DNA of 50,974 bases from Candidatus Woesebacteria bacterium UBA1430 (GTDB lineage: Bacteria > Patescibacteriota > Microgenomatia > UBA8517), in assembly GCA_002329465.1 (NCBI GenBank), contig DCTW01000001.1, positions 2,787 through 53,760 on the forward strand, read 5' to 3'. Positions within the stretch are counted from its first letter, which is position 1; every line of letters starts with the position of its first letter. A model generated the notes under the pieces. That model was not told where the DNA came from. It saw only the letters and a list, made by a program, of their open reading frames with translations, and ran no database searches. Shown here piece by piece: positions 6,135 through 25,085 of this stretch. The position numbers and the translations under genes were made by a program.

Positions 6135-7484
6135 ATGAAGCCCTGCCCTCGAAATTTTCATAAAGGCCAAATACTTATAGGTATAATAATAGCCCTCGGC
6201 ATCTTTAGCATTCTCTCCCAAGCGGTAATAACTCTTGTATTTTCGGCCTACGACACAATCTCCTATACAAGAGCAAGAACCAATGCCCAGCACATCGCCA
6301 ACTACGAAATAGAAACAATTAGAAATATGCCCTTTGACAAAGTAGGCACAATAAGTGGAATCCCGCAAGGCATTCTACCCCAAACAAAAACCATAATAGA
6401 AAACGGCCTTACCTACACAGTTAAAACCTCTGTCGTTTACATTGACGATCAGTTTGACGGCTTGGCGCCGGATGACATTCTCCCAAACGACTATAAAAGA
6501 GCAAGGATCGATGTCTCTTGGGGAGGAATAGCCGCTTCAAAGGGAAACACCGTTACCTTAATCACCGACGTATCGCCCAAAGGCATCGAAACCGAAACCG
6601 GCGGCGGCACGATCTCAATCCTCGTTTTTGATTCAAACTCAAACCCGGTCCCGCAAGCCAATGTACAAATATATGCGCCGTCACTATCCCCTACCGTAGA
6701 TTTAAACTTGATGACAGGCTCTGATGGAAAAGTCATCTTACCCGGCGCACCGACTTGTACGGAGTGCTATCAAATAACAATTACAAAAGATGGATTTAGC
6801 GCCGAAAAAACTTACTCAACAGCCGAAATAGCCAATCCGTCAAAACCGCATCTGACCGTAATAGAAAATGAGCTTACAGAAATATCATTCAGTATTGACC
6901 GCCTAAGTGACCTTACAATTTACACCGTAGATACAAAAAAATTTGAATTTGCACCCTTAACAAACCAGATAATCCACCTCAGGGGAGAAAAAATAATAGG
7001 AACCACAGAAGAAGACGAAGCAATTTACAAATACGACCAAGACGTAGTCTCAGATTCCCAAGGAAAAATCCAAATCGAAGATTTTGAATGGGATAACTAC
7101 CACATCACCCTACCTCAAGACAGTACAAAAGTGTTCGCAGGCAGTAACCCCCATCTTCCTGTCAAACTTGAGCCGAATACACAAAAGGATGTATTTATTT
7201 CGCTTGCAGATCCGTCAACGCCCTTTAGTCTTTTAACAATTTTTGAAGATAGCGCAGCAAATCCCATAGCTTCGGTCTCTGCAATACTTAAATTAAACGA
7301 TCAAATAGAAGCTAGCGGATCGGCAGGAATAAGCGATGATCCCGACTTTGGGCAAATATATTTTCCCGATCTTGAAAACGAAGACTACATTCTCGAAGCA
7401 ACCGCATCCGGATTTACCGATTATTCAAATGCAATATCCATAAATAGCCACAAAACTGAAAAAATAATTTTAATAGAGGAATAG
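6135..7484 (+). CDS. Large minor pilin (PilV-like) with C-terminal beta-sandwich (carboxypeptidase-regulatory-like) repeats
   Basis: KG|QILIG prepilin-like N-terminus, EIETIRNMPFDKVG and YKRARIDVSW motifs, repeated 'TxSDG/ITKDGF' segments. Confidence 0.7.
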   Translation: MKPCPRNFHKGQILIGIIIALGIFSILSQAVITLVFSAYDTISYTRARTNAQHIANYEIETIRNMPFDKVGTISGIPQGILPQTKTIIENGLTYTVKTSVVYIDDQFDGLAPDDILPNDYKRARIDVSWGGIAASKGNTVTLITDVSPKGIETETGGGTISILVFDSNSNPVPQANVQIYAPSLSPTVDLNLMTGSDGKVILPGAPTCTECYQITITKDGFSAEKTYSTAEIANPSKPHLTVIENELTEISFSIDRLSDLTIYTVDTKKFEFAPLTNQIIHLRGEKIIGTTEEDEAIYKYDQDVVSDSQGKIQIEDFEWDNYHITLPQDSTKVFAGSNPHLPVKLEPNTQKDVFISLADPSTPFSLLTIFEDSAANPIASVSAILKLNDQIEASGSAGISDDPDFGQIYFPDLENEDYILEATASGFTDYSNAISINSHKTEKIILIEE

Positions 7485-7485
7485 T

Positions 7486-8100
7486 ATGGACAAATATACG
7501 CAAAAAGGATTCACGCTGGTAGAAGTCTCCATGGTCGGTCTTTTTATCGTCATCTTAGGCTTCGGCATCGTCGGCATACAGTCTATTTTAGGTAAAAGCC
7601 AGCTTACTCTGATAAACAACACCATTTCCGTAGAAGAAACAAGCCGCATAGCAAACGAGTTCGTCAAAGAGCTAAGAACCGCAAGGCAGGGAGACAACGG
7701 GGCGTTCACAATCGAAACGGCCGAAAACAATAAAATAACCTTCTACTCGGATATCGACAAAGACGGCAAAGCTGAAAAAGTAACATACGAGCTTAACGAG
7801 AATACATTCACAAAAACTACAATCAAACCAAGCGGCAATCCTCCGGTTTATAATCCGGATGATGCAAAATCAATAAATTTATCTGATAATGTAAGGAACC
7901 ACGATATGCCCGCCTTTTTCTATTACAACCAGGACTGGCCGGAGGACACAGAGGGAAACCCCATGCCAACGCCGGCAGACTTAGATAAAATTAAGCTTGT
8001 ACAAATCTATATAAGAGTTAACCCAAAAGAAAATTCACCCGATACCGACTATGTAATTAGCTCGCAAGCACAGATAAGAACGCTAACAATAATAAGATGA
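7486..8100 (+). CDS. Minor pilin (PilW-like)
   Basis: QKG|FTLVE class III signal; ELRTA motif. Confidence 0.8.
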   Translation: MDKYTQKGFTLVEVSMVGLFIVILGFGIVGIQSILGKSQLTLINNTISVEETSRIANEFVKELRTARQGDNGAFTIETAENNKITFYSDIDKDGKAEKVTYELNENTFTKTTIKPSGNPPVYNPDDAKSINLSDNVRNHDMPAFFYYNQDWPEDTEGNPMPTPADLDKIKLVQIYIRVNPKENSPDTDYVISSQAQIRTLTIIR

Positions 8101-9494
8101 AAACAAAAAAAGGAACTATAACACCGGCTCTTCTTGTAATAACCGGCTCTTTTCTTGTAATAATATACGGACTTCTTTTACTCTTAACTACTCAGTTTGA
8201 ATATTCAAACAGAAGAGTTGCATCCGAAGAAGCGCTAAATATAGCAGAAGCAGGCATAAACTATTACAAATGGCATCTCGCCCACGCACCGGATGACTTT
8301 ACGGACGGCACGGGACAGGAAGGCCCCTATATCCACGTTTATAAAGATCCCCAAGGTAAAGAAATTGGCGAATTTAGCCTTGAAATAACCCCGCCGCAAG
8401 ACGGCTCATCACTAGTAACGATCAAGTCAACAGGAATTAGCTACAACAAACCCGGAATAAAGCGCACGATCACCGCTCAATACGGAAAGCCTTCCTTTGC
8501 CAAATTTGTTTTCCTCAATAACGCAAGCGCATGGTACGGAGAAGGAATAACGGTAAACGGAGACATCCACTCCAATAACGGCGTAAGAATGGATGGGACA
8601 AATACAGGCCGCGTAACAAGCGCAAAAGACGAATACCGCTGCGGCTCCGAAACAGGCTGCTCCCCGCCCGACTGGAAACCAGGAGTTTGGGGAGATGGAG
8701 GAGATCAGTCTCTTTGGGAATTCCCCGTGCCGATCGTGGACTTTGATTCCGTCGCATTCGATTTTCAAAACATGCGCCAAGCGGCACAAGACGTGGGTCT
8801 TTACCTCGACGATTCGGGAAGAGCCGGATATCACCTGGTATTCACAGAAAGTGGAACTATTGAAATTTATAGGGTAAATAACACCAACTCAATCTATGGC
8901 TACAGCGCACCGGGCGAAGGCCTCGGACAAGACGGGCAAGGAGGTTGTAGAAGAAGATACCAATTAATAAGAAACGAGGATCTAATCGGAACATATCAAA
9001 CCTCGGAAACCCCTATTATTTTTGCAGAAGATCATCTCTGGGTCGAGGGAACAGTTAAAGGAAAAGTTACTGTCGTAGCCGCAGGCTTTCCCCTTACATC
9101 AAGAAACATGAATATCTGGATCAAAAACAATATTGTTTACGATTCCTACGACGGCACAAACACCCTGGGGTTAATTGCACAAAACGATGTCTATTTCGTC
9201 CGCGATCTTCCCGATGATTTTCAAATAGACGCAGCGATCATAGCCCAAAAAGGAAGGGTGATAAGACATGGTTATCTGTGGTGGTGCGGAGACCACCCAA
9301 ACGCAATAAGAAATAGTCTTACCATAAACGGCGCACTTATTTCCTACTCCAAATCATACTGGAACTACAACGATCCTTTAGAATCCGGTTTTAGAACAAG
9401 GACAATAAACTACGATTCAAGATTCCTTTTTGCGCCTCCGCCATACTTCCCAACCACGGGGGAACTAGAATTCATTAGCTGGCAAGAAGATTAA
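8097..9494 (+). CDS. PilX-like minor pilin with large C-terminal domain
   Basis: KKG|TITP N-terminus, ALNIAEAGINYY PilX motif, beta-helix-like C-terminus ending YDSRFLFAPPPYFP. Confidence 0.75.
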   Translation: MKTKKGTITPALLVITGSFLVIIYGLLLLLTTQFEYSNRRVASEEALNIAEAGINYYKWHLAHAPDDFTDGTGQEGPYIHVYKDPQGKEIGEFSLEITPPQDGSSLVTIKSTGISYNKPGIKRTITAQYGKPSFAKFVFLNNASAWYGEGITVNGDIHSNNGVRMDGTNTGRVTSAKDEYRCGSETGCSPPDWKPGVWGDGGDQSLWEFPVPIVDFDSVAFDFQNMRQAAQDVGLYLDDSGRAGYHLVFTESGTIEIYRVNNTNSIYGYSAPGEGLGQDGQGGCRRRYQLIRNEDLIGTYQTSETPIIFAEDHLWVEGTVKGKVTVVAAGFPLTSRNMNIWIKNNIVYDSYDGTNTLGLIAQNDVYFVRDLPDDFQIDAAIIAQKGRVIRHGYLWWCGDHPNAIRNSLTINGALISYSKSYWNYNDPLESGFRTRTINYDSRFLFAPPPYFPTTGELEFISWQED

Positions 9495-16551: not shown

Positions 16552-18291
16552 TTACCAGCTCCCCCCACCCCCTCCGCCAAATCCGCCGCCTGCTGAACCG
16601 CCGCCAAATCCAGATCCGCCGGAGCTTTTCGGGCTAGAAGAAATGCTTTTTCCAAATGCGCTGTCCATGCTCCCGATATTCGCAAGAACAATAGCGTTTG
16701 TTCCCCCCACATAAGAAGGCGGAGAAACTCCGAGCTTTTTCATTTCGCTTGCAAGCTTTTTAACGACCCCCAAAGAAATCGCCAGCGGAAGCATCTCTTC
16801 AAAAAACAGCCTCTTTTCATTTATCTCATGCCTCCACTTACCCTTATTGACATAAAAGGCAAGCCCCTTGCCCTGCCTATGCACCGCATACCCCGCGGCA
16901 GTCTTTCTCGGCATCAAAAAGGCAATAGGAAAAGAGATAACGCTAAAAATCCCAAAAACAACAAAAGGCAGATAATTCCCGGTCAAACTATAAAACCAAT
17001 ATATAACAAGCGCCAAAAATACTTCCAATGCGCCCAATTTAAAAATCCACTTAATCCTCACCCTTTCGGGGTTTGTAGGAAAGTACCCGGCTTTGACCAC
17101 TTGTTCGTAAATCCTCTTTTTAAACTCGGGTAAATGTTTATAAAACTTATTCTCAAGCGAGCTTAAAAGCACCTCATCCCCGCCCTCAAAAAGCTTTTCA
17201 TACAAATATTTCTGGTAATCCCGAAGGAGCTTTGTATCCTTTTCTAATTTGATAAATTTATAATCCGTAGTCTTGCCCAAAAATTTTTTCTTGGCAACAA
17301 TTTCCATTTTTAGGAAGCGAAGCCTTGCAAGCTCGGCTATCTCGGCAACCACATCCCTTATATCTACTCGCTCATCAACGACAGTTCCCAGCTCTCCGGG
17401 AGTTACACCATCAAGAGGATAGTAAGAAGTCGGCAAATGTGCCCTCTTAAAAATAGATACCGTTTTAGTAGATTTATCATCCGGCTCGTAATAAACGCTG
17501 TCCGACAAATACCTCTTGTCTCTCCCGTGTTTAAACCAGAAATACAATATATAGAAAAACCCTAAGGGAGCGGCTAAATATCCAAAAAAATTAATAAATC
17601 TCTCTGTTAACCTTTCAATAAACCCCGGAAAAACTAGCTCATTATTCTTATCAAAAGCAACTACAATACTCATATCCCGCCCGTTGCCAAGCGTTTGTCC
17701 TGTCGAAAAGCTAGCCAATTGTGCGTTAACAGTCTGAGAAGTACACTCCTTGCTAGACCCGCTCTCACCGCTATAACATCGGATATCTACGATCCCGGCA
17801 TAATCGGATATAACATTAGCAGTTACATTCTCAACAGGCGCATCCCAGCCGCCGCCAACCACATTCCAGTAAAGTTCATAGTGCTTATCATACGCGATCA
17901 AAATATTTTTAACCCGGTAAGTAATTACATAAAAAACTTCCCCGGAAACCAGCTTCTCAGAATCGCCTATTTTTATAGAAACATAGTCCCCAGATTTACT
18001 AACCTTGTAAGGGATTTCAACCCCCCGCCCATCAGTAACGCTATGAACCGAAAGCTTGCTGTTAATCCTTCTCCCATCGATCTTATAAACACTCGGTATC
18101 TCCCTGTAAATCCCGTGCCTGCTTTCCGAAAAATAAACATCAATCCGTTCAGTAATCAAAAAAGAAGTATCCTTAGAAAGTGTAATATCAGCCTCAAACC
18201 GTCTCACCTCATACCCGCCAAGAGAAGCTTGAACCGGTCTTACAAACCCAAAAAATAAAATAAAAATAAAAAGAGCTAAAATTCTTCGCAT
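16552..18291 (-). CDS. DUF2207-like membrane protein
   Basis: ITERI..HGIYREIP, ELYWNVVG, GELGTVVD, and a Gly-rich C-terminus (GGGFGGGGGGSW). Confidence 0.88.
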   Translation of the reverse strand: MRRILALFIFILFFGFVRPVQASLGGYEVRRFEADITLSKDTSFLITERIDVYFSESRHGIYREIPSVYKIDGRRINSKLSVHSVTDGRGVEIPYKVSKSGDYVSIKIGDSEKLVSGEVFYVITYRVKNILIAYDKHYELYWNVVGGGWDAPVENVTANVISDYAGIVDIRCYSGESGSSKECTSQTVNAQLASFSTGQTLGNGRDMSIVVAFDKNNELVFPGFIERLTERFINFFGYLAAPLGFFYILYFWFKHGRDKRYLSDSVYYEPDDKSTKTVSIFKRAHLPTSYYPLDGVTPGELGTVVDERVDIRDVVAEIAELARLRFLKMEIVAKKKFLGKTTDYKFIKLEKDTKLLRDYQKYLYEKLFEGGDEVLLSSLENKFYKHLPEFKKRIYEQVVKAGYFPTNPERVRIKWIFKLGALEVFLALVIYWFYSLTGNYLPFVVFGIFSVISFPIAFLMPRKTAAGYAVHRQGKGLAFYVNKGKWRHEINEKRLFFEEMLPLAISLGVVKKLASEMKKLGVSPPSYVGGTNAIVLANIGSMDSAFGKSISSSPKSSGGSGFGGGSAGGGFGGGGGGSW

Positions 18292-18312: not shown

Positions 18313-19884
18313 TCATTGGCCATTAATCATCAAGCTTCTAACCACATCTCCGATAAGGCGCACTTTTAAGCTTATATTCCGGATATTTCCGTAAGGCACG
18401 CAAACATCCGAGCAAAGCCCAAGATAAATCCCCTGCACATTTATTTCCTCTCCCAAAATCTCGCCCTTCCCCTCAATTCCCTGCTCTCCTGCATCCGAAT
18501 CGTAAGTAATAATATATTCATATCTTTCAAATTTAGCTACTCCGCCGCCGGTCACTCTAAAGCTTAAATCGGCTCCATCTCTATAAAGATCAAGGTTTGT
18601 TTCAATCGTACTATGCGGATTAGTCCCCGGATTCGGATTATCAAGTATCTCCCAGTCGGTGGCGGAGTTGGTATCAACGCCGGCCGTTTTTCTTGCCATG
18701 GATTTGCCGTCCCCGGTCAAAACCACACCATTACCGCTGCCAAAAGCATAAGAATCATCCCCCCAGCTCACAGCATCGATCTCAAACCCCGACGGATTTT
18801 TAAGTATCAGCCGGTCTCCGCCGTTAGCAAGCCCGTTGCCGATTTTTTGGCCTGTGTAAACACGGATAGCGCTCAAAGGAGGATTAAAGCAGCCCGTATT
18901 CCAAGTATTTGCGGATTTAGAAATCACGGCATATCCGTGTGCAGGAACAGAAACAGAATTGCTATGAATAATTGTCGTATCATTATTATCAGTCAAACTC
19001 CAGTCTTTAAGATCCACATCAAAGCTATTGTTATTGTAAAGCTCCACCCATTCATCAGGGTTTGCTCCCCCGTCATTACCGCAAACGCTACCTACATCAT
19101 AATAAACCTCATTTATCACCACACCTGTTACATCATTCTCCCAGTATCCAGCGGAAAAGCTATTCCCCGAAAGAACTACCTGTGATGCAAAATAAGCCCC
19201 GCTTGTCGCGGCATTAAAGCTTATTACCCCAAAAGTCAAAAAAAATATCTTCAATAAACCAAATTTTTTAAGAAAGCGCTTTATTCCACGCTCAGCCTTT
19301 ATCTCCTCCTCACCGATTGCCTCAACAATCTTCTCCCGTGAAGAAAGCTTACGGCTTCTCCTCTTAACAATAAGCCTTTTTGCCTCGTTTTTAATACTTA
19401 CCATCTCACTGTAAATAATAATAGTTGCAGGAATAATAATTAAAACAATAAGTCCAATCTGTGTCCTTGCAAAATTTACGGCGTACCCAAGTAGCGGCAG
19501 GTGGAAAAAAACTTTTCCGATAATAAGTCCGCGGTCAACACTCTCCGGATCCGCCGTCTCATTCGCATCGCCTTTGGTAACAAATCTCTCCGCGCCCCCC
19601 TCGTCTTTTATCTCCACAATCCTATGTGTTGTAGTGTTTTTAGGCCTTGTTACATCCCTATCCCCCTCCGGCTTAAAAGTAACAATATCCCCCTCGCTGT
19701 AATTAGAAACAGGGCCCACCAAAACAATGCTTCCGGTAGGGATAGCAGGAGACATCGATCCGGACAATACGTTATAAAGCCGGTGCCCTCCGGCAAAATC
19801 AAAAGTAGATAGGCTTGTAAGCCCGGCAATAAGCACGAGAAACAAAAAAACAAGCCAGTAAATTATATTTGTAATTTTTTTCAT
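18313..19884 (-). CDS. Signal peptidase I (SipW-type) fused to internal SipW-type signal peptide and lamin-tail domain
   Basis: VLSGSMSPAIP (catalytic Ser), TTTHRIV, TKGDAN, then TSGAYFASQVVLSGNSFSAGYW, then VVINEVYY..DEWVELYN. Confidence 0.82.
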   Translation of the reverse strand: MKKITNIIYWLVFLFLVLIAGLTSLSTFDFAGGHRLYNVLSGSMSPAIPTGSIVLVGPVSNYSEGDIVTFKPEGDRDVTRPKNTTTHRIVEIKDEGGAERFVTKGDANETADPESVDRGLIIGKVFFHLPLLGYAVNFARTQIGLIVLIIIPATIIIYSEMVSIKNEAKRLIVKRRSRKLSSREKIVEAIGEEEIKAERGIKRFLKKFGLLKIFFLTFGVISFNAATSGAYFASQVVLSGNSFSAGYWENDVTGVVINEVYYDVGSVCGNDGGANPDEWVELYNNNSFDVDLKDWSLTDNNDTTIIHSNSVSVPAHGYAVISKSANTWNTGCFNPPLSAIRVYTGQKIGNGLANGGDRLILKNPSGFEIDAVSWGDDSYAFGSGNGVVLTGDGKSMARKTAGVDTNSATDWEILDNPNPGTNPHSTIETNLDLYRDGADLSFRVTGGGVAKFERYEYIITYDSDAGEQGIEGKGEILGEEINVQGIYLGLCSDVCVPYGNIRNISLKVRLIGDVVRSLMINGQ

Positions 19885-19897
19885 TTAAGCCTTAGTT

Positions 19898-19922
19898 TGT
19901 TGCGCAAATTTCTTGCGCAACA
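19898..19922. promoter_or_regulatory. Hairpin between tasA-like and sipW-fusion genes
   Basis: TGTTGCGCAA-ATTTC-TTGCGCAACA, a perfect 10-bp stem without a U-tract on the coding strand. Confidence 0.6.
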
Positions 19923-19937
19923 TCAAATGCTTAATGC

Positions 19938-20558
19938 TTACTCACTCCATCCAGGATTCTCAGGCTGTGTACCAATACCGATTATATTAAACACAGAACT
20001 CAAACTTTGATAACTATTCCCAGCGGAACTATCAAGCCAAAGCTCAAGCATCCATCTGTGGGATCCTTCCGGATGACTCACTGAACCAAGCAAATTTGGA
20101 TCAGGCACTGCATAATTTGAACCTGCCCCGTTTAGATCCTTCAACCATCCAGATTTTCTAAGCTGCCAATTTCCCCCTGAACATAAAACGGGCGCTGAAA
20201 CCGGATGGGGACATTTATAAAGCCTATATTTAATCTTGTTATAAAGCGATCCGCTTCCACTCGTTAATTGTGCATGCAACCTATATTTAATGGGCGTCGA
20301 AGAATTGGAATGATTATAAACTTCAAAATATGTAGTGTCTTTATTCGATTCTCCGGGCAGCATATTGGTAGCGACTACAGGCACACCATCCGTTGGAAAA
20401 TCTGTTCCATGTCCTTTAATGTCAAACTTAATTGCCCCCGCAGAAGCAAAAGTATTATTTGTCTCGGTATCATTTCCCACATACCAAGCTCTGGTTGACC
20501 CAACTGCCAGGGTGCCGACAAGCGCGATCATCATTAAGCTCATTAATATTCTTTTCAT
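19938..20558 (-). CDS. TasA/CalY-like SipW-cognate secreted protein
   Basis: MKRILMSLMMIALVGTLAVGSTRAWY..DTETNNTFASAG SipW-class signal, NMLPGES motif, SD GGGAGGTGAT. Confidence 0.78.
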   Translation of the reverse strand: MKRILMSLMMIALVGTLAVGSTRAWYVGNDTETNNTFASAGAIKFDIKGHGTDFPTDGVPVVATNMLPGESNKDTTYFEVYNHSNSSTPIKYRLHAQLTSGSGSLYNKIKYRLYKCPHPVSAPVLCSGGNWQLRKSGWLKDLNGAGSNYAVPDPNLLGSVSHPEGSHRWMLELWLDSSAGNSYQSLSSVFNIIGIGTQPENPGWSE

Positions 20559-20588
20559 TTATATCACCTCCCTTCTCCCCCAAGCACC

Positions 20589-20612
20589 AAAAAAGCCGCC
20601 CTTCGGCGGCTT
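20589..20612 (-). terminator. Intrinsic terminator in the 5' leader of the tasA-like gene
   Basis: AAGCCGCC-GAAG-GGCGGCTT followed by TTTT, about 15 nt upstream of the SD. Confidence 0.8.
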
Positions 20613-20674
20613 ACTACTATGTTTCCCAAGTATAAATTCTTAGCATATTACTTAGGGCTAGCTTAAACAACCTC

Positions 20675-20703
20675 AATATACTCTGTTAAAAGCACCCTGT
20701 CAA
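20675..20703 (-). promoter_or_regulatory. sigma70 promoter for tasA-like leader
   Basis: TTGACA (20703-20698), 17 nt, TATATT (20680-20675). Confidence 0.75.
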
Positions 20704-20942: not shown

Positions 20943-22907
20943 TCACAAAACGCCCTCCTTTGCCCTCATTTTATACCAATTAGATAAGTACGCGCTCGTG
21001 AGCATAAGAAGAAGCACATAGTAAATCATATAATCTTTCTTTACGGTTGAAGCAGCGCCCAGTACCTGCCCCCCGCTTGCATTGGCAACAGGCAAAGCCT
21101 CCTCCCCCTCATCCGGCGTCAAATCGGAAGCAGTAGTGCCCTTTACCTTTATCTTAAAAAAGCTGTCCGAATAAGCGGATATTTCGCCGTCGTGAGGCCC
21201 CACTATCCCGAAAACTTCGGCATGCGCCATATACTCACCCTCCAATGCATTCCGGGAAAGCACAAGCCCGGTTGAAATCTTAAATCCTTTATTCGGCGCG
21301 ATATCCCCAAGCGGTATTATCCCGCCTCCCAAATCTTCCCCATCCTTTATAAGGCTTAGTACCAAGGTAGCTCCATAAACCTTGCCTGTTCCGACATTTT
21401 TTACATCTACAAAAAAGGTTACAGTATCCCCGGGATAAACAAAATCATTTACATTGTTTTTCTGATAAACCTCAAGCTCCCCGCCTTCTTCTTTGGAGCT
21501 GGATGTACTCATTGCCATGCTTTCGCTAGAAATATTTCCACCCTCATCATCAGCGGCATCGGACACGGGATAAAGCATTGACTCGGTCCCAATGTTGCCG
21601 CTAAATGTACCGAAAATATTTACAAATCCCAAAAATCCTAAAGAATTCTTAATCGTAGTATTTATAAAATTAACGATTGAGACAGCGCTTACCGCATTCC
21701 CGGTCTTTATGCTTGATCCCTCCTCACCGGAAGCGCTATTTCCTCCCGTATTGGCAGTAGAAATTACATTATTATAAACATAAGCTTCATTGGCAATATC
21801 ACTTCCTTCCACACAGCCCGTACATCCCCCCACTGCGCTTTCCCCTTCTCCCCAGCCCAAAAGCTCTCCGCTCCACTCACCAAGATTATTAATATAAAAA
21901 AGCCTGAAAAAACTATTCAAAATATTAAGATTTACCACATTGACCAAATTTACGCTGGACACGGCATCTCCCGTATCAATATCCGCATTCTCGCCTTCTG
22001 CTGCATTGCCTCCGCTATCAGCGCTTGAGGTAACAACGTTTTCAACCTCCGCATTGTTTTCAATATCCACTAAAGATCCTCCGCAATCTGTACATGTCTC
22101 TTCATCCAAAATATCGGGCAAGACTATGTCTCCGTCCAGTTCACCGAAAATATTAATAGTAACGACATAAACCTTCGAGTCAACAATTGTAGTATTAACA
22201 CGGTTAAGAAGAGATACTACCGAATAAGCATTCCCGGTCTCAATAGTAGCAGTCTCACCCGTAGCAGAATTTCCGCCCGTATTGGCAACGCTCACTATTT
22301 CATTGCTAAGATATGCATAATTATTATTTTCAAGAAATACTACATTTACGGTTTCTTCATCCCCCCCGCTTGAAACAACCTCCTCTATCAAAGGCCAGGA
22401 GTCGATAGCTAAATTAACACCTTCCGCAAAAAAGATATTAAGAGTCTTAAAAACCACCTCGCTATTTACCTCTGTAGAATTTACTTGGTTCTCGGTCTCA
22501 ACGAAAGATACGCTGTCTCCCGTTTCTACCTGGGAAGAAGAAGTAGGGCTAGGGCTTGGACTGGGGCTGGAGCTGGGGCTGGCCTCAGCAGTTGGTGAAG
22601 GGCTCACCTCGTCCACAACAGGGGACGGACTGGGTGACGGACTGGGTGACGGCGTAGGGCTTTCGCTGACAATTTCATTCTCCCCGCTTTCGGCTTCTGT
22701 TGTAACCTCATCAACAACCTCTGCTTCATTTTCAATCACCGCATCGGTTTCCCCGGCAGTTTCTTCGGCAGATACTTCAATAGCATCAACCGTTTGAGCT
22801 TCAGTATCAAGAGTTTCAGTAGCATATATTGCATAAGGAGTTGTGCGCACAAAAAGAAGGGTAAATATAACTAAAATTGATATTTTTCGTTTCAGCTTTT
22901 CATTCAT
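20943..22907 (-). CDS. Large secreted protein with three N/T/G-rich ~50-aa repeats, Ig-like domain and C-terminal GxVLG + TM anchor
   Basis: Signal peptide, acidic/PS linker, repeats 'NxAxVxNxVxSxAxTGGNxA..xTGxAxSxVxLxNxVN', CxxC motifs before repeats 2 and 3, GQVLGA followed by a TM. Confidence 0.75.
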   Translation of the reverse strand: MNEKLKRKISILVIFTLLFVRTTPYAIYATETLDTEAQTVDAIEVSAEETAGETDAVIENEAEVVDEVTTEAESGENEIVSESPTPSPSPSPSPSPVVDEVSPSPTAEASPSSSPSPSPSPTSSSQVETGDSVSFVETENQVNSTEVNSEVVFKTLNIFFAEGVNLAIDSWPLIEEVVSSGGDEETVNVVFLENNNYAYLSNEIVSVANTGGNSATGETATIETGNAYSVVSLLNRVNTTIVDSKVYVVTINIFGELDGDIVLPDILDEETCTDCGGSLVDIENNAEVENVVTSSADSGGNAAEGENADIDTGDAVSSVNLVNVVNLNILNSFFRLFYINNLGEWSGELLGWGEGESAVGGCTGCVEGSDIANEAYVYNNVISTANTGGNSASGEEGSSIKTGNAVSAVSIVNFINTTIKNSLGFLGFVNIFGTFSGNIGTESMLYPVSDAADDEGGNISSESMAMSTSSSKEEGGELEVYQKNNVNDFVYPGDTVTFFVDVKNVGTGKVYGATLVLSLIKDGEDLGGGIIPLGDIAPNKGFKISTGLVLSRNALEGEYMAHAEVFGIVGPHDGEISAYSDSFFKIKVKGTTASDLTPDEGEEALPVANASGGQVLGAASTVKKDYMIYYVLLLMLTSAYLSNWYKMRAKEGVL

Positions 22908-22942
22908 TCAAATATTTCTATACTTTTAATAAAATTTCAAAC

Positions 22943-22966
22943 GGAAGGGGGTAATAACCCCCTTCC
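22943..22966. terminator. Hairpin after small repeat protein gene
   Basis: GGAAGGGGG-TAATAA-CCCCCTTCC, a 9-bp stem. Confidence 0.7.
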
Positions 22967-22979
22967 AAAAATAAAAGGG

Positions 22980-23438
22980 TTAATTACCAACTACGTTGGT
23001 ATTAACAATATTATCTACAAGAGTTGCAGCATCGGCATTACCGCTAGTAAGGCTTCCGCCTCTCACGTCATCCCACGCCCAAATCTTGTTGTAACCAGTC
23101 TTTGCGATTGTATCAAGATAATTCTTAACCACTCCACTATTGTTAAGAGTTACATCATCATAACAACCACAATCTACAGAATTTGTGTTAACCTTGTTCA
23201 TTACTTGGGTAACTGCACCAGCTGCACCACTCTTAAGTGTGCCTCCCCAAACATCATCCATAGCGGATATTTTATTTCCGCCTGTTTTTGCAACAGTGTC
23301 AACAACATTCTTTACATAAGCACTATTGTTAACTTCGAGGTCATCATTACTCCATCCCCACCAAAACGCACCTGCTGGGGCAGCAGCAACCACCAAAAGG
23401 AGTGTGCTTGCAGCTAAACCTGCTAATATTTTCTTCAT
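22980..23438 (-). CDS. Small secreted two-repeat N/T/G-rich protein (start revised to MKKIL, 152 aa)
   Basis: SD AAAGGAGGTGAT before ATG 23438, Sec signal ending APAGA, two ~60-aa repeats separated by DCGCY. Confidence 0.8.
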   Translation of the reverse strand: MKKILAGLAASTLLLVVAAAPAGAFWWGWSNDDLEVNNSAYVKNVVDTVAKTGGNKISAMDDVWGGTLKSGAAGAVTQVMNKVNTNSVDCGCYDDVTLNNSGVVKNYLDTIAKTGYNKIWAWDDVRGGSLTSGNADAATLVDNIVNTNVVGN

Positions 23439-23509
23439 ATTCTTATCACCTCCTTTCCTTCGATACACTATACACTATTCAATAACAAAAAAACTATCAG
23501 TAATTTAGA

Positions 23510-24067
23510 TTACATACTTTCAGGTACTGCTCTTATGACAAATCTTTTTCTGTCAAAAAGCCCGCTGCAAGTATAAATCGTAAGCACTTCACTCTCTGTA
23601 TTTGAGGCTATTTTTACATCCGAAGGATCTGTTTCAAAAGCGCTCTCAACACGGTATTTATGCACATTTCCGGATCCATCAATAATCTTAATCAAATCAT
23701 CCCTTTTTAAAAATTTTATAGGACCGAAAAGATTATCCCTATTATGCGCGTATAAGAGAATATTTCCCCCTCCTCCCGGATCCGCCGAAATATCAAGGTG
23801 GTTTGCAGCTTTGTCTGACACCTCCCACACGCCGTCAACAATACCCGACTCAACAACCTCAATTTTCAAACCAATTCTCTCAATTTCAATAATATAAGGA
23901 TCATAAGTAATAACTTCTGTCTGCTTCATAGCTTCCCGGTCCGGCGAAACATAAAGCTTTCCAAACTCACGGATACGAAAATAAATTGGAACTGATAGAA
24001 GAATAATTCCGAAAGCTAAAAAGAAAAAATTAGTTCTCTTTGTTTTTGGCAAAAGTTCGTCTGACAC
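23510..24067 (-). CDS. Sortase
   Basis: N-terminal TM and catalytic triad in LYAHN, LTIYTC, RFVIRA. Confidence 0.88.
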   Translation of the reverse strand: MSDELLPKTKRTNFFFLAFGIILLSVPIYFRIREFGKLYVSPDREAMKQTEVITYDPYIIEIERIGLKIEVVESGIVDGVWEVSDKAANHLDISADPGGGGNILLYAHNRDNLFGPIKFLKRDDLIKIIDGSGNVHKYRVESAFETDPSDVKIASNTESEVLTIYTCSGLFDRKRFVIRAVPESM

Positions 24068-24743
24068 CCGCCGAAGTTACCAAAGCACCTATAATAAAAA
24101 GGACATTATAATAATCCTCACCGGCTCCGGTATCGGCAAGCGTGCTAGCTCCAAGCACAGCACCCGCTGTCCCGCCCGTACAAACTTCATTTGAAGGAGC
24201 ACTTACTGCACATCCGTTTACAGCGCGGACAACAAAACAGCCGCTTGTTAATCCATTGACAGTAAACCTATCAGTATCCCCTGTACTCGGCACGCCATAA
24301 ACATGCTCACCGGGATTTGGCCCGTAAAAAATTGCATAATCGTTTGCATTCTCAACCTTCTGCCAAACTATCTCAATGCTTTCAACACCTGTCCTTGTAG
24401 CGCTTATCAAGTATGGCGCATTTGGCGCCGGATCCGTACAAACCGGAGGCCCGGCAGGGCTTGTTCCACCGCGCGCAGGCTCGGAAGAAGCAGGCGTAGG
24501 AGCGGGCGAAGCACTCGGCTCTCCTGTGGGCTCGGAGGTAGGTTCAACAGTTGGTTCTGACGTCGGTTCACTCGTTGGCTCAGCCGTCGGCTCAGAAGTG
24601 GGTGAAGGACTGGTAGAACTGGAAGGTTTTGGACTGCACCAGCAAGCATTTGCGTTTTCAGTGTAAGAATTTGAAGCAACTACAATAAGAAGAATAAATA
24701 ATCCTACAAAAGCTCCTTTTAAAAAATCAGGTAATTTGATCAT
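24030..24743 (-). CDS. Secreted Fn3-like protein with SEPT repeats and LPxTG-like (LADTG) sorting signal
   Basis: Signal peptide, (S/A/V)EPT repeats, Fn3-like domain (IVWQKV..YAIFYG..FTVNGL), VLGASTLADTG, then a TM and a basic tail. Confidence 0.78.
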   Translation of the reverse strand: MIKLPDFLKGAFVGLFILLIVVASNSYTENANACWCSPKPSSSTSPSPTSEPTAEPTSEPTSEPTVEPTSEPTGEPSASPAPTPASSEPARGGTSPAGPPVCTDPAPNAPYLISATRTGVESIEIVWQKVENANDYAIFYGPNPGEHVYGVPSTGDTDRFTVNGLTSGCFVVRAVNGCAVSAPSNEVCTGGTAGAVLGASTLADTGAGEDYYNVLFIIGALVTSAGVRRTFAKNKEN

Positions 24744-24776
24744 TTGCCCGAAGTCTAGATGTAAGTAACACCCTTG

Positions 24777-25085
24777 TCAAGTAGTATATTTAATCTCCAC
24801 ACTCTCCCCCTTTGAAATATCCTTTCCATTAACAGGTATGCTCAACGCCCAGCCGATCGCATTGGCAACGGATACCCCCACGCGAAGCCCGGTAAAAGAT
24901 CCTGGCCCAATTACCACTTTAATCTCGGTAACATCCGAAATCTTCTTTCCTTTTTTCACCAAAATCTCATCAATAAACTCCAAAAGAGCCTGGGATTTTT
25001 CTTTCTTGGAAGAAGACTCAAACATCTCCCCGTCAATCCCGACTACAATTTTTTCAGAATCAGAGGTATCTATAAATAGTCTCAT
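24777..25085 (-). CDS. tsaB: Short TsaB-like protein
   Basis: LFIDTS, VVIGPGSFTGLRVG. Only 102 aa (N-terminal half). Confidence 0.8.
   Translation of the reverse strand: MRLFIDTSDSEKIVVGIDGEMFESSSKKEKSQALLEFIDEILVKKGKKISDVTEIKVVIGPGSFTGLRVGVSVANAIGWALSIPVNGKDISKGESVEIKYTT

Follow-up and report, generated by a model that had tools for sequence, protein, structure and literature searches.

A conserved pair of secreted repeat proteins in Patescibacteria, candidate subunits of a membrane-tethered cross-beta filament or coat

Introduction

Curli are made from CsgA and CsgB, the secreted products of two adjacent paralogous genes that share one Asn/Gly/Ala-rich strand-turn-strand repeat; one of the two proteins is abundant and free and the other is associated with the cell, and the amyloid nature of the fibre is established. 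The chaplins of the monoderm Streptomyces come as short (ChpD-H) and long, multi-domain, anchored (ChpA-C) paralogues together with class E sortases, the Fap system of Pseudomonas is represented by FapC, with a few imperfect long repeats that form one layer each, and Bacillus has the TasA/SipW fibres (Peptidase_M73/camelysin). Here we describe a locus of Candidatus Woesebacteria bacterium UBA1430 (Patescibacteriota, Microgenomatia; assembly GCA_002329465.1) that encodes a pair of secreted proteins with a common repeat, a small one of 152 amino acids (aa) and a large one of 654 aa, next to a sortase and its putative substrate. The whole stretch of DNA that was analysed, 50,974 nucleotides (nt) of contig DCTW01000001.1 (positions 2,787 to 53,760), is called the window, and the nucleotide coordinates given are positions in it, unless another locus is named.

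The bacteria of the Candidate Phyla Radiation (CPR), or Patescibacteria, account for a large part of the diversity of bacteria, and the majority live attached to other cells. Type IV pili apart, we know of no identified proteins that build the surface of these cells, and to our knowledge no composition has been assigned to their pili-like appendages or to their periodic surface layer. Both structures have been seen on groundwater CPR cells by cryogenic transmission electron microscopy (PMC7906910).

The initial annotation of the locus had set the two repeat proteins beside curli and Fap. Kinship with either finds no support, as no homology was detected in Pfam scans of the small protein, the large protein and 105 members of the small family; the curlin repeat (Curlin_rpt, PF07012) matched none of the 105 members at E<=1, nor the large protein (E<=0.1). 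The likeness to curli is instead one of layout: two adjacent paralogous secreted genes, one Asn/Gly/Ala-rich strand-turn-strand repeat, one protein that would be abundant and free beside a cell-associated one, and repeats, here called rungs, predicted as a two-sheet beta-solenoid. The differences are no less clear. CsgA rungs have ~22 aa, those of the present family ~60 aa, or 87-90 aa in the large protein. There are only two rungs in the small protein, Cys pairs lie at the rung junctions, and the partner of 654 aa is anchored as a type I membrane protein and includes an Ig-like domain, whereas CsgB is small. Secretion genes of the CsgG/CsgE/CsgF type are absent from the neighbours of the locus because the host is a monoderm. 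Finally, the amyloid is established for curli, while here it is a candidate.

With the chaplins the locus shares a monoderm host, a short free and a long multi-domain anchored paralogue, an LAxTG sortase encoded nearby and a Cys pair in the short subunit. The chaplin domain (PF03777) was however not matched by the small or the large protein, nor by any of the 105 small-family members, the repeat is longer, and it is a membrane helix, not an LAxTG signal, that anchors the long protein, the LAxTG substrate being an unrelated Fn3-like protein. We think that the pair would work most like curli or the chaplins and be a member of neither. The best structural matches of the small model, though non-significant ones, are FapC amyloids (PDB 9u4u and 9nqd), which have the same few, long and imperfect repeats with one layer each, but the TM-score (template modelling score) is only ~0.2, there is no sequence similarity, and neither a FapF-type outer-membrane exporter nor any other fap operon gene is present. 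Genes for a TasA-like protein and SipW lie immediately downstream here and in a few other genomes. They form, however, a separate transcription unit with a promoter of its own, accompany the repeat pair in no more than 3-4 of 33 loci, and the repeat proteins are unrelated to TasA: PF12389 matched neither of them and was seen only in the orthologue of the 206-aa downstream gene. A sortase-assembled Gram-positive pilus was also considered, and is ruled out by the lack of a C-terminal LPXTG-type signal in the small protein.

Results and discussion

The small and the large protein are a real, conserved and unnamed pair of CPR surface proteins. That they make a fibre or a functional amyloid, as proposed at the outset, is our leading hypothesis, and expression signals and topology speak for it: the small protein, with two rungs, would assemble on the anchored stack of four rungs in the large protein, and on itself, into a tethered cross-beta filament or coat. 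We give this reading a probability of roughly 0.45.

The small protein is encoded by an open reading frame (ORF) at 22980-23438 on the minus strand, and consists of a signal peptide (residues 1-24) and two 62-residue repeats joined by CGC. The initial annotation had described it as almost entirely two repeats split by CGC, and a hidden Markov model (HMM) of the single repeat indeed matches both halves: repeat 1 at aa 32-90 (nt 23345-23169, minus strand; 1.3e-22) and repeat 2 at aa 94-152 (nt 23159-22983, minus strand; 2.6e-21 for aa 94-151), on either side of the CGC at aa 90-92. The two repeats are identical at 36 of 58 aligned positions. The C-terminus is ...VNTNVVGN, with neither a sorting signal nor a hydrophobic tail, and the mature members of the family have a median of ~10 variable residues ahead of repeat 1 and 0-5 past repeat 2. 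As judged from the sequence, the mature small protein (128 aa) is thus shown to be two uncapped rungs and nothing else, with capping domains absent. Across the small proteins the Cys motif at the repeat junction is C-x-C in 62% and C-x-x-C in 18%, and small-type proteins with two, three or four repeats were found.

The large protein (ORF at 20943-22907, minus strand) is a type I membrane protein with, from the N- to the C-terminus, a signal peptide, an acidic segment, four repeats, an Ig-like domain and a membrane helix. Three repeats of the same family, two of them after a CxxC, and a membrane anchor had been noted initially, and all are seen: R1 at aa 193-263 (HMM match at 193-243), R2 at aa 280-350 (280-330) after CTDC at aa 272-275, and R3 at aa 370-441 (370-419) after CTGC at aa 362-365, with E-values of 1e-12 to 1e-13. 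To these we add a fourth, split repeat, R0, with its first arm at aa 55-81 (7.5e-5 with the same HMM), a Pro/Ser linker at aa 82-123 and its second arm at aa 124-160; AlphaFold models both halves as strands with a predicted local distance difference test (pLDDT) score of 84-91, and the split repeat is present in the family consensus. The repeats of the large protein carry an additional element of ~25 aa (..INIFG..G.I), and the period is therefore 87-90 aa. The Ig-like (CARDB-like) domain, recognised with Foldseek and AlphaFold, occupies aa 475-590, between the repeats and the membrane helix at about aa 627-645, and it is only through this domain that the large model finds Foldseek matches (CARDB 3idu, TRAP subunits and Spo0M). 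Both proteins of the pair carry ordinary Sec-type AxA signal peptides.

Profile comparisons show that the two proteins share one repeat family: with the HMM of the small protein the large one is matched at 9e-36, and in the converse search the small one at 3e-15. No Pfam family was matched by either at E<=0.1 and NCBIfam was likewise blank (scans of seven genes), the Pfam scan of the 105 small homologues returned scattered noise only, a PDB sequence profile search returned signal-peptide noise only, and we found no description of the family in the literature. When the small profile was searched against 1.84 billion representatives clustered at 50% identity (cut-off E<=1e-3), it gave 1,341 proteins, mostly from Microgenomates, among them more than 100 clusters of two-repeat proteins of 140-175 aa and many multi-repeat proteins of 600-1,300 aa. 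A word-based homology search with the small protein found 5 relatives only, which understates the size of the family compared with the HMM search. The large protein has at least 398 homologues. Where the homologues are labelled, they are mainly from Daviesbacteria, Beckwithbacteria, Woesebacteria, Levybacteria and the 'Patescibacteria group', and the complete genome 'Candidatus Woesebacteria bacterium Ch104b' (CP055307) comes nearest, with a large protein that is 81-84% identical and the same gene order. In an even sample of Patescibacteria the repeat is carried by 46 of 401 genomes; among the genomes listed from the same class, 12 match and 8 do not. Each of the two genes, small and large, is present in exactly one copy in the source genome (594 kb, 85% complete).

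The initial annotation held that the idea would fall if small and large homologues did not occur together across genomes; they do. From species-representative genomes we retrieved loci with the large-family alignment, 63 of which had a large-family gene after removal of duplicate genomes; pairing was counted over the 49 with enough upstream DNA, and flanking genes over the 33 with full flanks. In 46 of the 49 loci, which span many Microgenomates lineages and a few Parcubacteria, the HMM detects a two-repeat small gene immediately 5' of the large gene and in the same orientation. Of the three unpaired loci, one has a large gene that is truncated, and the other two do hold two-repeat genes, which are divergent and escaped the HMM. 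The count and the nature of these exceptions argue that the pairing of the two genes is essentially obligate. The truncated gene (locus L056, Gottesmanbacteria, 7212-8897) is cut down to the C-terminal 320 aa and abuts a SipW-like gene on the opposite strand, with no small gene upstream, and the locus is probably decayed. A conserved secreted protein of ~115-145 aa (…TGDSYSK..V…VYTRIE.E.NGEK.VLE… and a C-terminal amphipathic helix) is encoded just upstream of the small gene in 13 of the 33 loci (for example at 5900-6244 in L004 and 5526-5891 in L005); it is absent from the source genome and may be a third component.

The expression signals divide the pair in a consistent way. The near-perfect Shine-Dalgarno (SD) sequence that had been ascribed to the small gene is there, an extended AAGGAGGTGAT at 23445-23455 on the minus strand, 6 nt ahead of the ATG. 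Of 46 small genes, 33 (72%) match this sequence over 8 nt or more, usually over 10 nt; the same holds for 0 of 46 large genes and for 3.8% of background ORFs of the same loci. The hairpin reported 3' of the small gene is there as well: GGAAGGGGG-TTATTA-CCCCCTTCC at 22943-22966 on the minus strand, GC-rich and intercistronic, with a 9-bp stem and a 6-nt loop, lies directly after the gene, with a minimum free energy z-score of -4.35. A stable GC-rich hairpin follows the small gene in 40 of 40 loci, each with z below -2 and with a mean z of -5.9 against shuffled sequences. A canonical U-tract is absent from the hairpin of the window, a terminator scan gave no call there, and Rfam has no match for the region. 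Since many of the orthologous hairpins are flanked by a 5' U-run and a 3' A-run instead of a 3' U-tract, the element looks more like an attenuator or a 3'-end stabiliser than like a classical terminator, and it may be specific to the lineage. It often takes the form UUUUGUCC…GGGGAGGG–loop–CCCUCCCC…GGGACAAAA, in which the 5' arm is SD-like and the 3' arm anti-SD-like. The extended SD on the small gene only, together with the conserved hairpin, points to a small protein made in large excess over the large one, a pattern characteristic of an abundant subunit with a scarcer partner encoded after it. A strong SD and a hairpin could also suggest a bacteriocin precursor with its immunity protein, which is ruled out as the downstream protein shares the repeat.

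The same signals bear on a more modest reading, in which the two proteins combine at a fixed stoichiometry, the small one attached to the rung stack of its partner, for example as a cap or an extension by a few rungs, and the finite hetero-complex serves as a surface receptor, adhesin or spacer. The near-universal gene pairing and the common repeat fit this, as do the single small gene per genome and the complete folded ectodomain of the large protein, which on its Ig-like stalk is adhesin- or receptor-like. A fixed stoichiometry is however hard to combine with the large excess of small protein that the small-only SD and the conserved hairpin point to, and an uncapped small protein would leave both ends of such a complex open. 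We find this reading somewhat unlikely.

The fold was approached with AlphaFold2, run with family alignments of 105-116 sequences, and with covariation. The model of the small protein is all-beta, with a mean pLDDT of 80.8 and about 90 in the repeats, and that of the large protein reaches pLDDT >90 in the repeats and the Ig-like domain. Over 767 single repeats (639 effective sequences) all the top covarying pairs fall on the antidiagonal i+j=61-63 and join the conserved faces of two arms, for example 9-52, 13-50, 15-48, 17-44/46, 22-40, 24-37 and 26-35, and the antidiagonal recurs within R1, R2 and R3 of the large protein. Covariation and models show in this way that each repeat is one long strand-turn-strand rung. 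In the small model DSSP assigns short beta-strands at the tips of the arches, at residues 62-64 and 124-126, and since these can pair only between repeats the model is a stack of arches; the rungs are thus predicted to be stacked as a beta-solenoid or a cross-beta arcade. Foldseek against the PDB gave 18 weak matches to the small model, all of them parallel beta-solenoids and FapC amyloids first (E=0.03 and 0.065). Of the beta-solenoid that had been suggested for the small protein, the strand-turn-strand rung is borne out by covariation and AlphaFold, while the fold matches to solenoids are not significant. A capped domain that does not polymerise had been named as an outcome that would speak against a fibre; by sequence the small protein has no caps, and the predicted monomer is one of stacked arches.

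It is possible to hold that the stacked rungs are an artefact of AlphaFold, and that the repeat is a long hydrogen-bonded beta-hairpin, a sandwich or a single-layer sheet rather than cross-beta. A hairpin would explain the antidiagonal covariation equally well as an arch, there is no significant structural neighbour, and the in-register signal is confounded by concerted evolution. We nevertheless regard an artefact as very unlikely, as the pLDDT is about 90 on alignments of 105-116 sequences, each of the weak fold matches is a parallel beta-solenoid, arch-tip strands are predicted in both repeats, and all repeats share invariant Asn residues at equivalent positions, which recalls Asn ladders.

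In the filament or coat that we favour, the two arms of each ~60-residue rung would face each other through a conserved face of Asn, Ala, Val, Thr and Ser, and the rungs would stack in register. The small protein, two uncapped rungs, would be produced in large excess by means of its 10-11-nt SD, with the hairpin after its stop codon limiting the expression of the downstream gene or outlasting it. The large protein would raise its four wider rungs above the membrane on an Ig-like stalk, and small subunits would add onto this stack and head to tail onto each other; the cross-beta (beta-solenoid) filament or coat formed in this way would be tethered to the membrane. The steps that we infer are polymerisation, co-assembly, the in-register stacking of the rungs and the role of the large protein as a template.

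Several observations weigh against this mechanism. No significant fold match was found for the small model among PDB or viral models (best E=0.03, TM-score about 0.2 or less), and AlphaFold tends to build solenoids from repeats. Covariation between positions i and i+62 of the small protein is strong, and we had considered it as proof of stacking; it was dropped, because repeats within a protein evolve in concert. Covariation is also seen between R1 and R3 of the large protein, two repeats that a stack would not place next to each other. The same charges recur in both repeats of the small protein (K43/K105, D47/D109 and K51/K113), and these identical residues would come to lie upon each other in an in-register stack. 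The additional element in the repeats of the large protein has no counterpart in the small one, and the two stacks may not be isomorphous. Within a genome, finally, the matching of small and large sequences appears negligible, with 34.6% identity between small repeats and their cognate large repeats against 33.0% with the large repeats of other genomes.

As to concerted evolution, the repeats within one small protein are 58% identical, compared with 38% between orthologous repeats. A comparison of repeat codons took in the small genes of loci L011, L005, L047, L046 and L008 and of the window, and shows gene conversion between the repeats in part of the lineages: in L011, codons are identical at 34 of 40 sites. 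The small gene of the window has 12 identical codons of 36 where 14 are expected, so there is no signal of gene conversion, and in the lineages without it the repeats are still ~60% identical at the protein level.

The lack of sequence matching within a genome would also suit a third reading, according to which the two are surface or secreted beta-solenoid binding proteins with independent functions (adhesin, lectin or mineral-binding), co-transcribed as paralogues, the small one being released in soluble form and not assembling on its partner. The weak fold likeness to soluble binding proteins of beta-helical fold, such as ice-binding proteins, Ag43 and SRRP, agrees with this, and so do the outward-facing residues of the small protein, which diverge fast across genomes (36% identity between orthologues), as expected of an interaction surface. 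An uncapped two-rung solenoid with a minimal core is on the other hand unlikely as a stable soluble monomer, and strict adjacency over such a deep phylogenetic range exceeds what paralogy requires. Independent functions therefore seem distinctly unlikely to us.

The gene order first reported for the locus, an Fn3-like LADTG protein, a sortase, the 152-aa secreted protein, a hairpin and the 654-aa protein, is present on the minus strand. The idea of a single sortase cluster does not hold, as the sortase and its LAxTG substrate are a separate, overlapping pair of genes. The substrate (237 aa; ORF at 24030-24743, minus strand) starts with a signal or anchor and continues with a Pro/Thr/Ser linker and an Fn3-like domain, whose match is weak (PF00041, E=0.007, profile positions 2-80 of 84). 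At its C-terminus the sorting signal VLGASTLADTG, in a tail that reads GAVLGASTLADTG, is followed by a hydrophobic segment and the basic end RRTFAKNKEN. The sortase (185 aa; 23510-24067, minus strand), whose gene overlaps the 3' end of the substrate gene, is one of two in the source genome and scores under the cut-offs of all NCBIfam sortase classes. By its domain match (PF04203, 3.5e-19) and by the motif, hydrophobic segment and basic tail of its neighbour, the two qualify as a sortase and its substrate.

A sortase gene that overlaps a substrate gene 5' of it occurs within 8 kb in 15 of the 33 fully flanked loci, be it upstream, downstream or on the opposite strand, against a few per cent expected by chance (a rough estimate from about 2 sortases per ~1-Mb genome), and the link to the repeat pair is therefore real but facultative. 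What remains of the proposed cluster is a frequent co-location; it is not constant, and neither repeat protein has a sortase signal. The sortase and the Fn3-like LADTG protein are thus a wall-anchoring pair of their own that is often found together with the repeat pair.

The large protein as a sortase substrate is ruled out by the lack of an LPXTG/LAxTG signal across 116 members of its family; 2 of the 116 tails match, both by a chance LAYTA in the cytoplasmic tail. The substrates next to a sortase end in (Q/E)VLGA(S/T)T-[LM]A[DGA]TG, with LADTG, MADTG, LAGTG or LAATG used by orthologous pairs. A VLG motif without LAxTG is present in 81 of the 116 large proteins, 15-25 residues ahead of the membrane helix; in the window it is QVLG at aa 614-617 (21057-21065), in a C-terminal region that reads QVLGAASTVKKD and continues into the helix. 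That (Q/E)VLGA(S/T) also precedes the LAxTG of the sortase substrates (24100-24140 in the window; loci L007-L071) is a side observation, and the motif has the look of a longer sorting or processing signal of CPR bacteria, or of the remnant of such a signal.

A promoter-like site, TTGACA-17-TAGACT, lies upstream of the Fn3-like gene at 24752-24780 on the minus strand (10 of 12 matches in a consensus scan, a pattern match only), and a near-consensus promoter at 20703-20675 opens the downstream operon (18313-20703, minus strand). From these two sites, the substrate, sortase, small and large genes are probably one transcription unit that starts at the first, and the TasA/SipW genes another. The downstream operon, whose leader holds a terminator-like hairpin at 20612-20593, encodes the TasA-like protein (206 aa; 19938-20558, minus strand), an orthologue of which matches Peptidase_M73, and, as a fusion with a lamin-tail domain, a signal peptidase of the SipW type (523 aa; 18313-19884, minus strand; TIGR02228 8e-32, LTD 4.6e-18). 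A DUF2207 membrane protein with a Gly-rich C-terminal tail is encoded 3' of the SipW gene (16552-18291), an order that is kept in the Ch104b relative, and the other neighbours include tsaB/tsaE and a galE-like gene. Nearly all genes of the window (1-50974) are encoded on the minus strand, and its GC skew is strongly negative all along, between -0.11 and -0.38 when taken over 2 kb at a time. Such skew and strand bias resemble the strand-composition disparity described for a Microgenomates lineage (PMC7143001).

Conclusions

A widespread family that is unnamed in the databases shows, at the level of the genome, the marks of an abundant structural subunit and of an anchored partner that is rarer, and the predicted architecture of the pair resembles that of functional amyloids without homology to any of them. 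If the small protein does not polymerise, the two would still make up a conserved CPR surface complex that is worth naming. If it does, the pair would give a molecular handle on the surface structures of CPR bacteria and on their attachment to hosts, and would be a new cross-beta scaffold with very wide rungs.

We also venture, as an unlikely extension, that the pair builds the pili-like appendages or the periodic surface layer of CPR cells, as an independent monoderm cross-beta polymer with rungs of ~60-90 residues, in which an excess of two-rung subunits is templated on a membrane-anchored platform of four rungs. Should that be true, a further system of the functional-amyloid kind would stand beside curli, Fap and the chaplins, and it would be a main component of the surface of Microgenomates.

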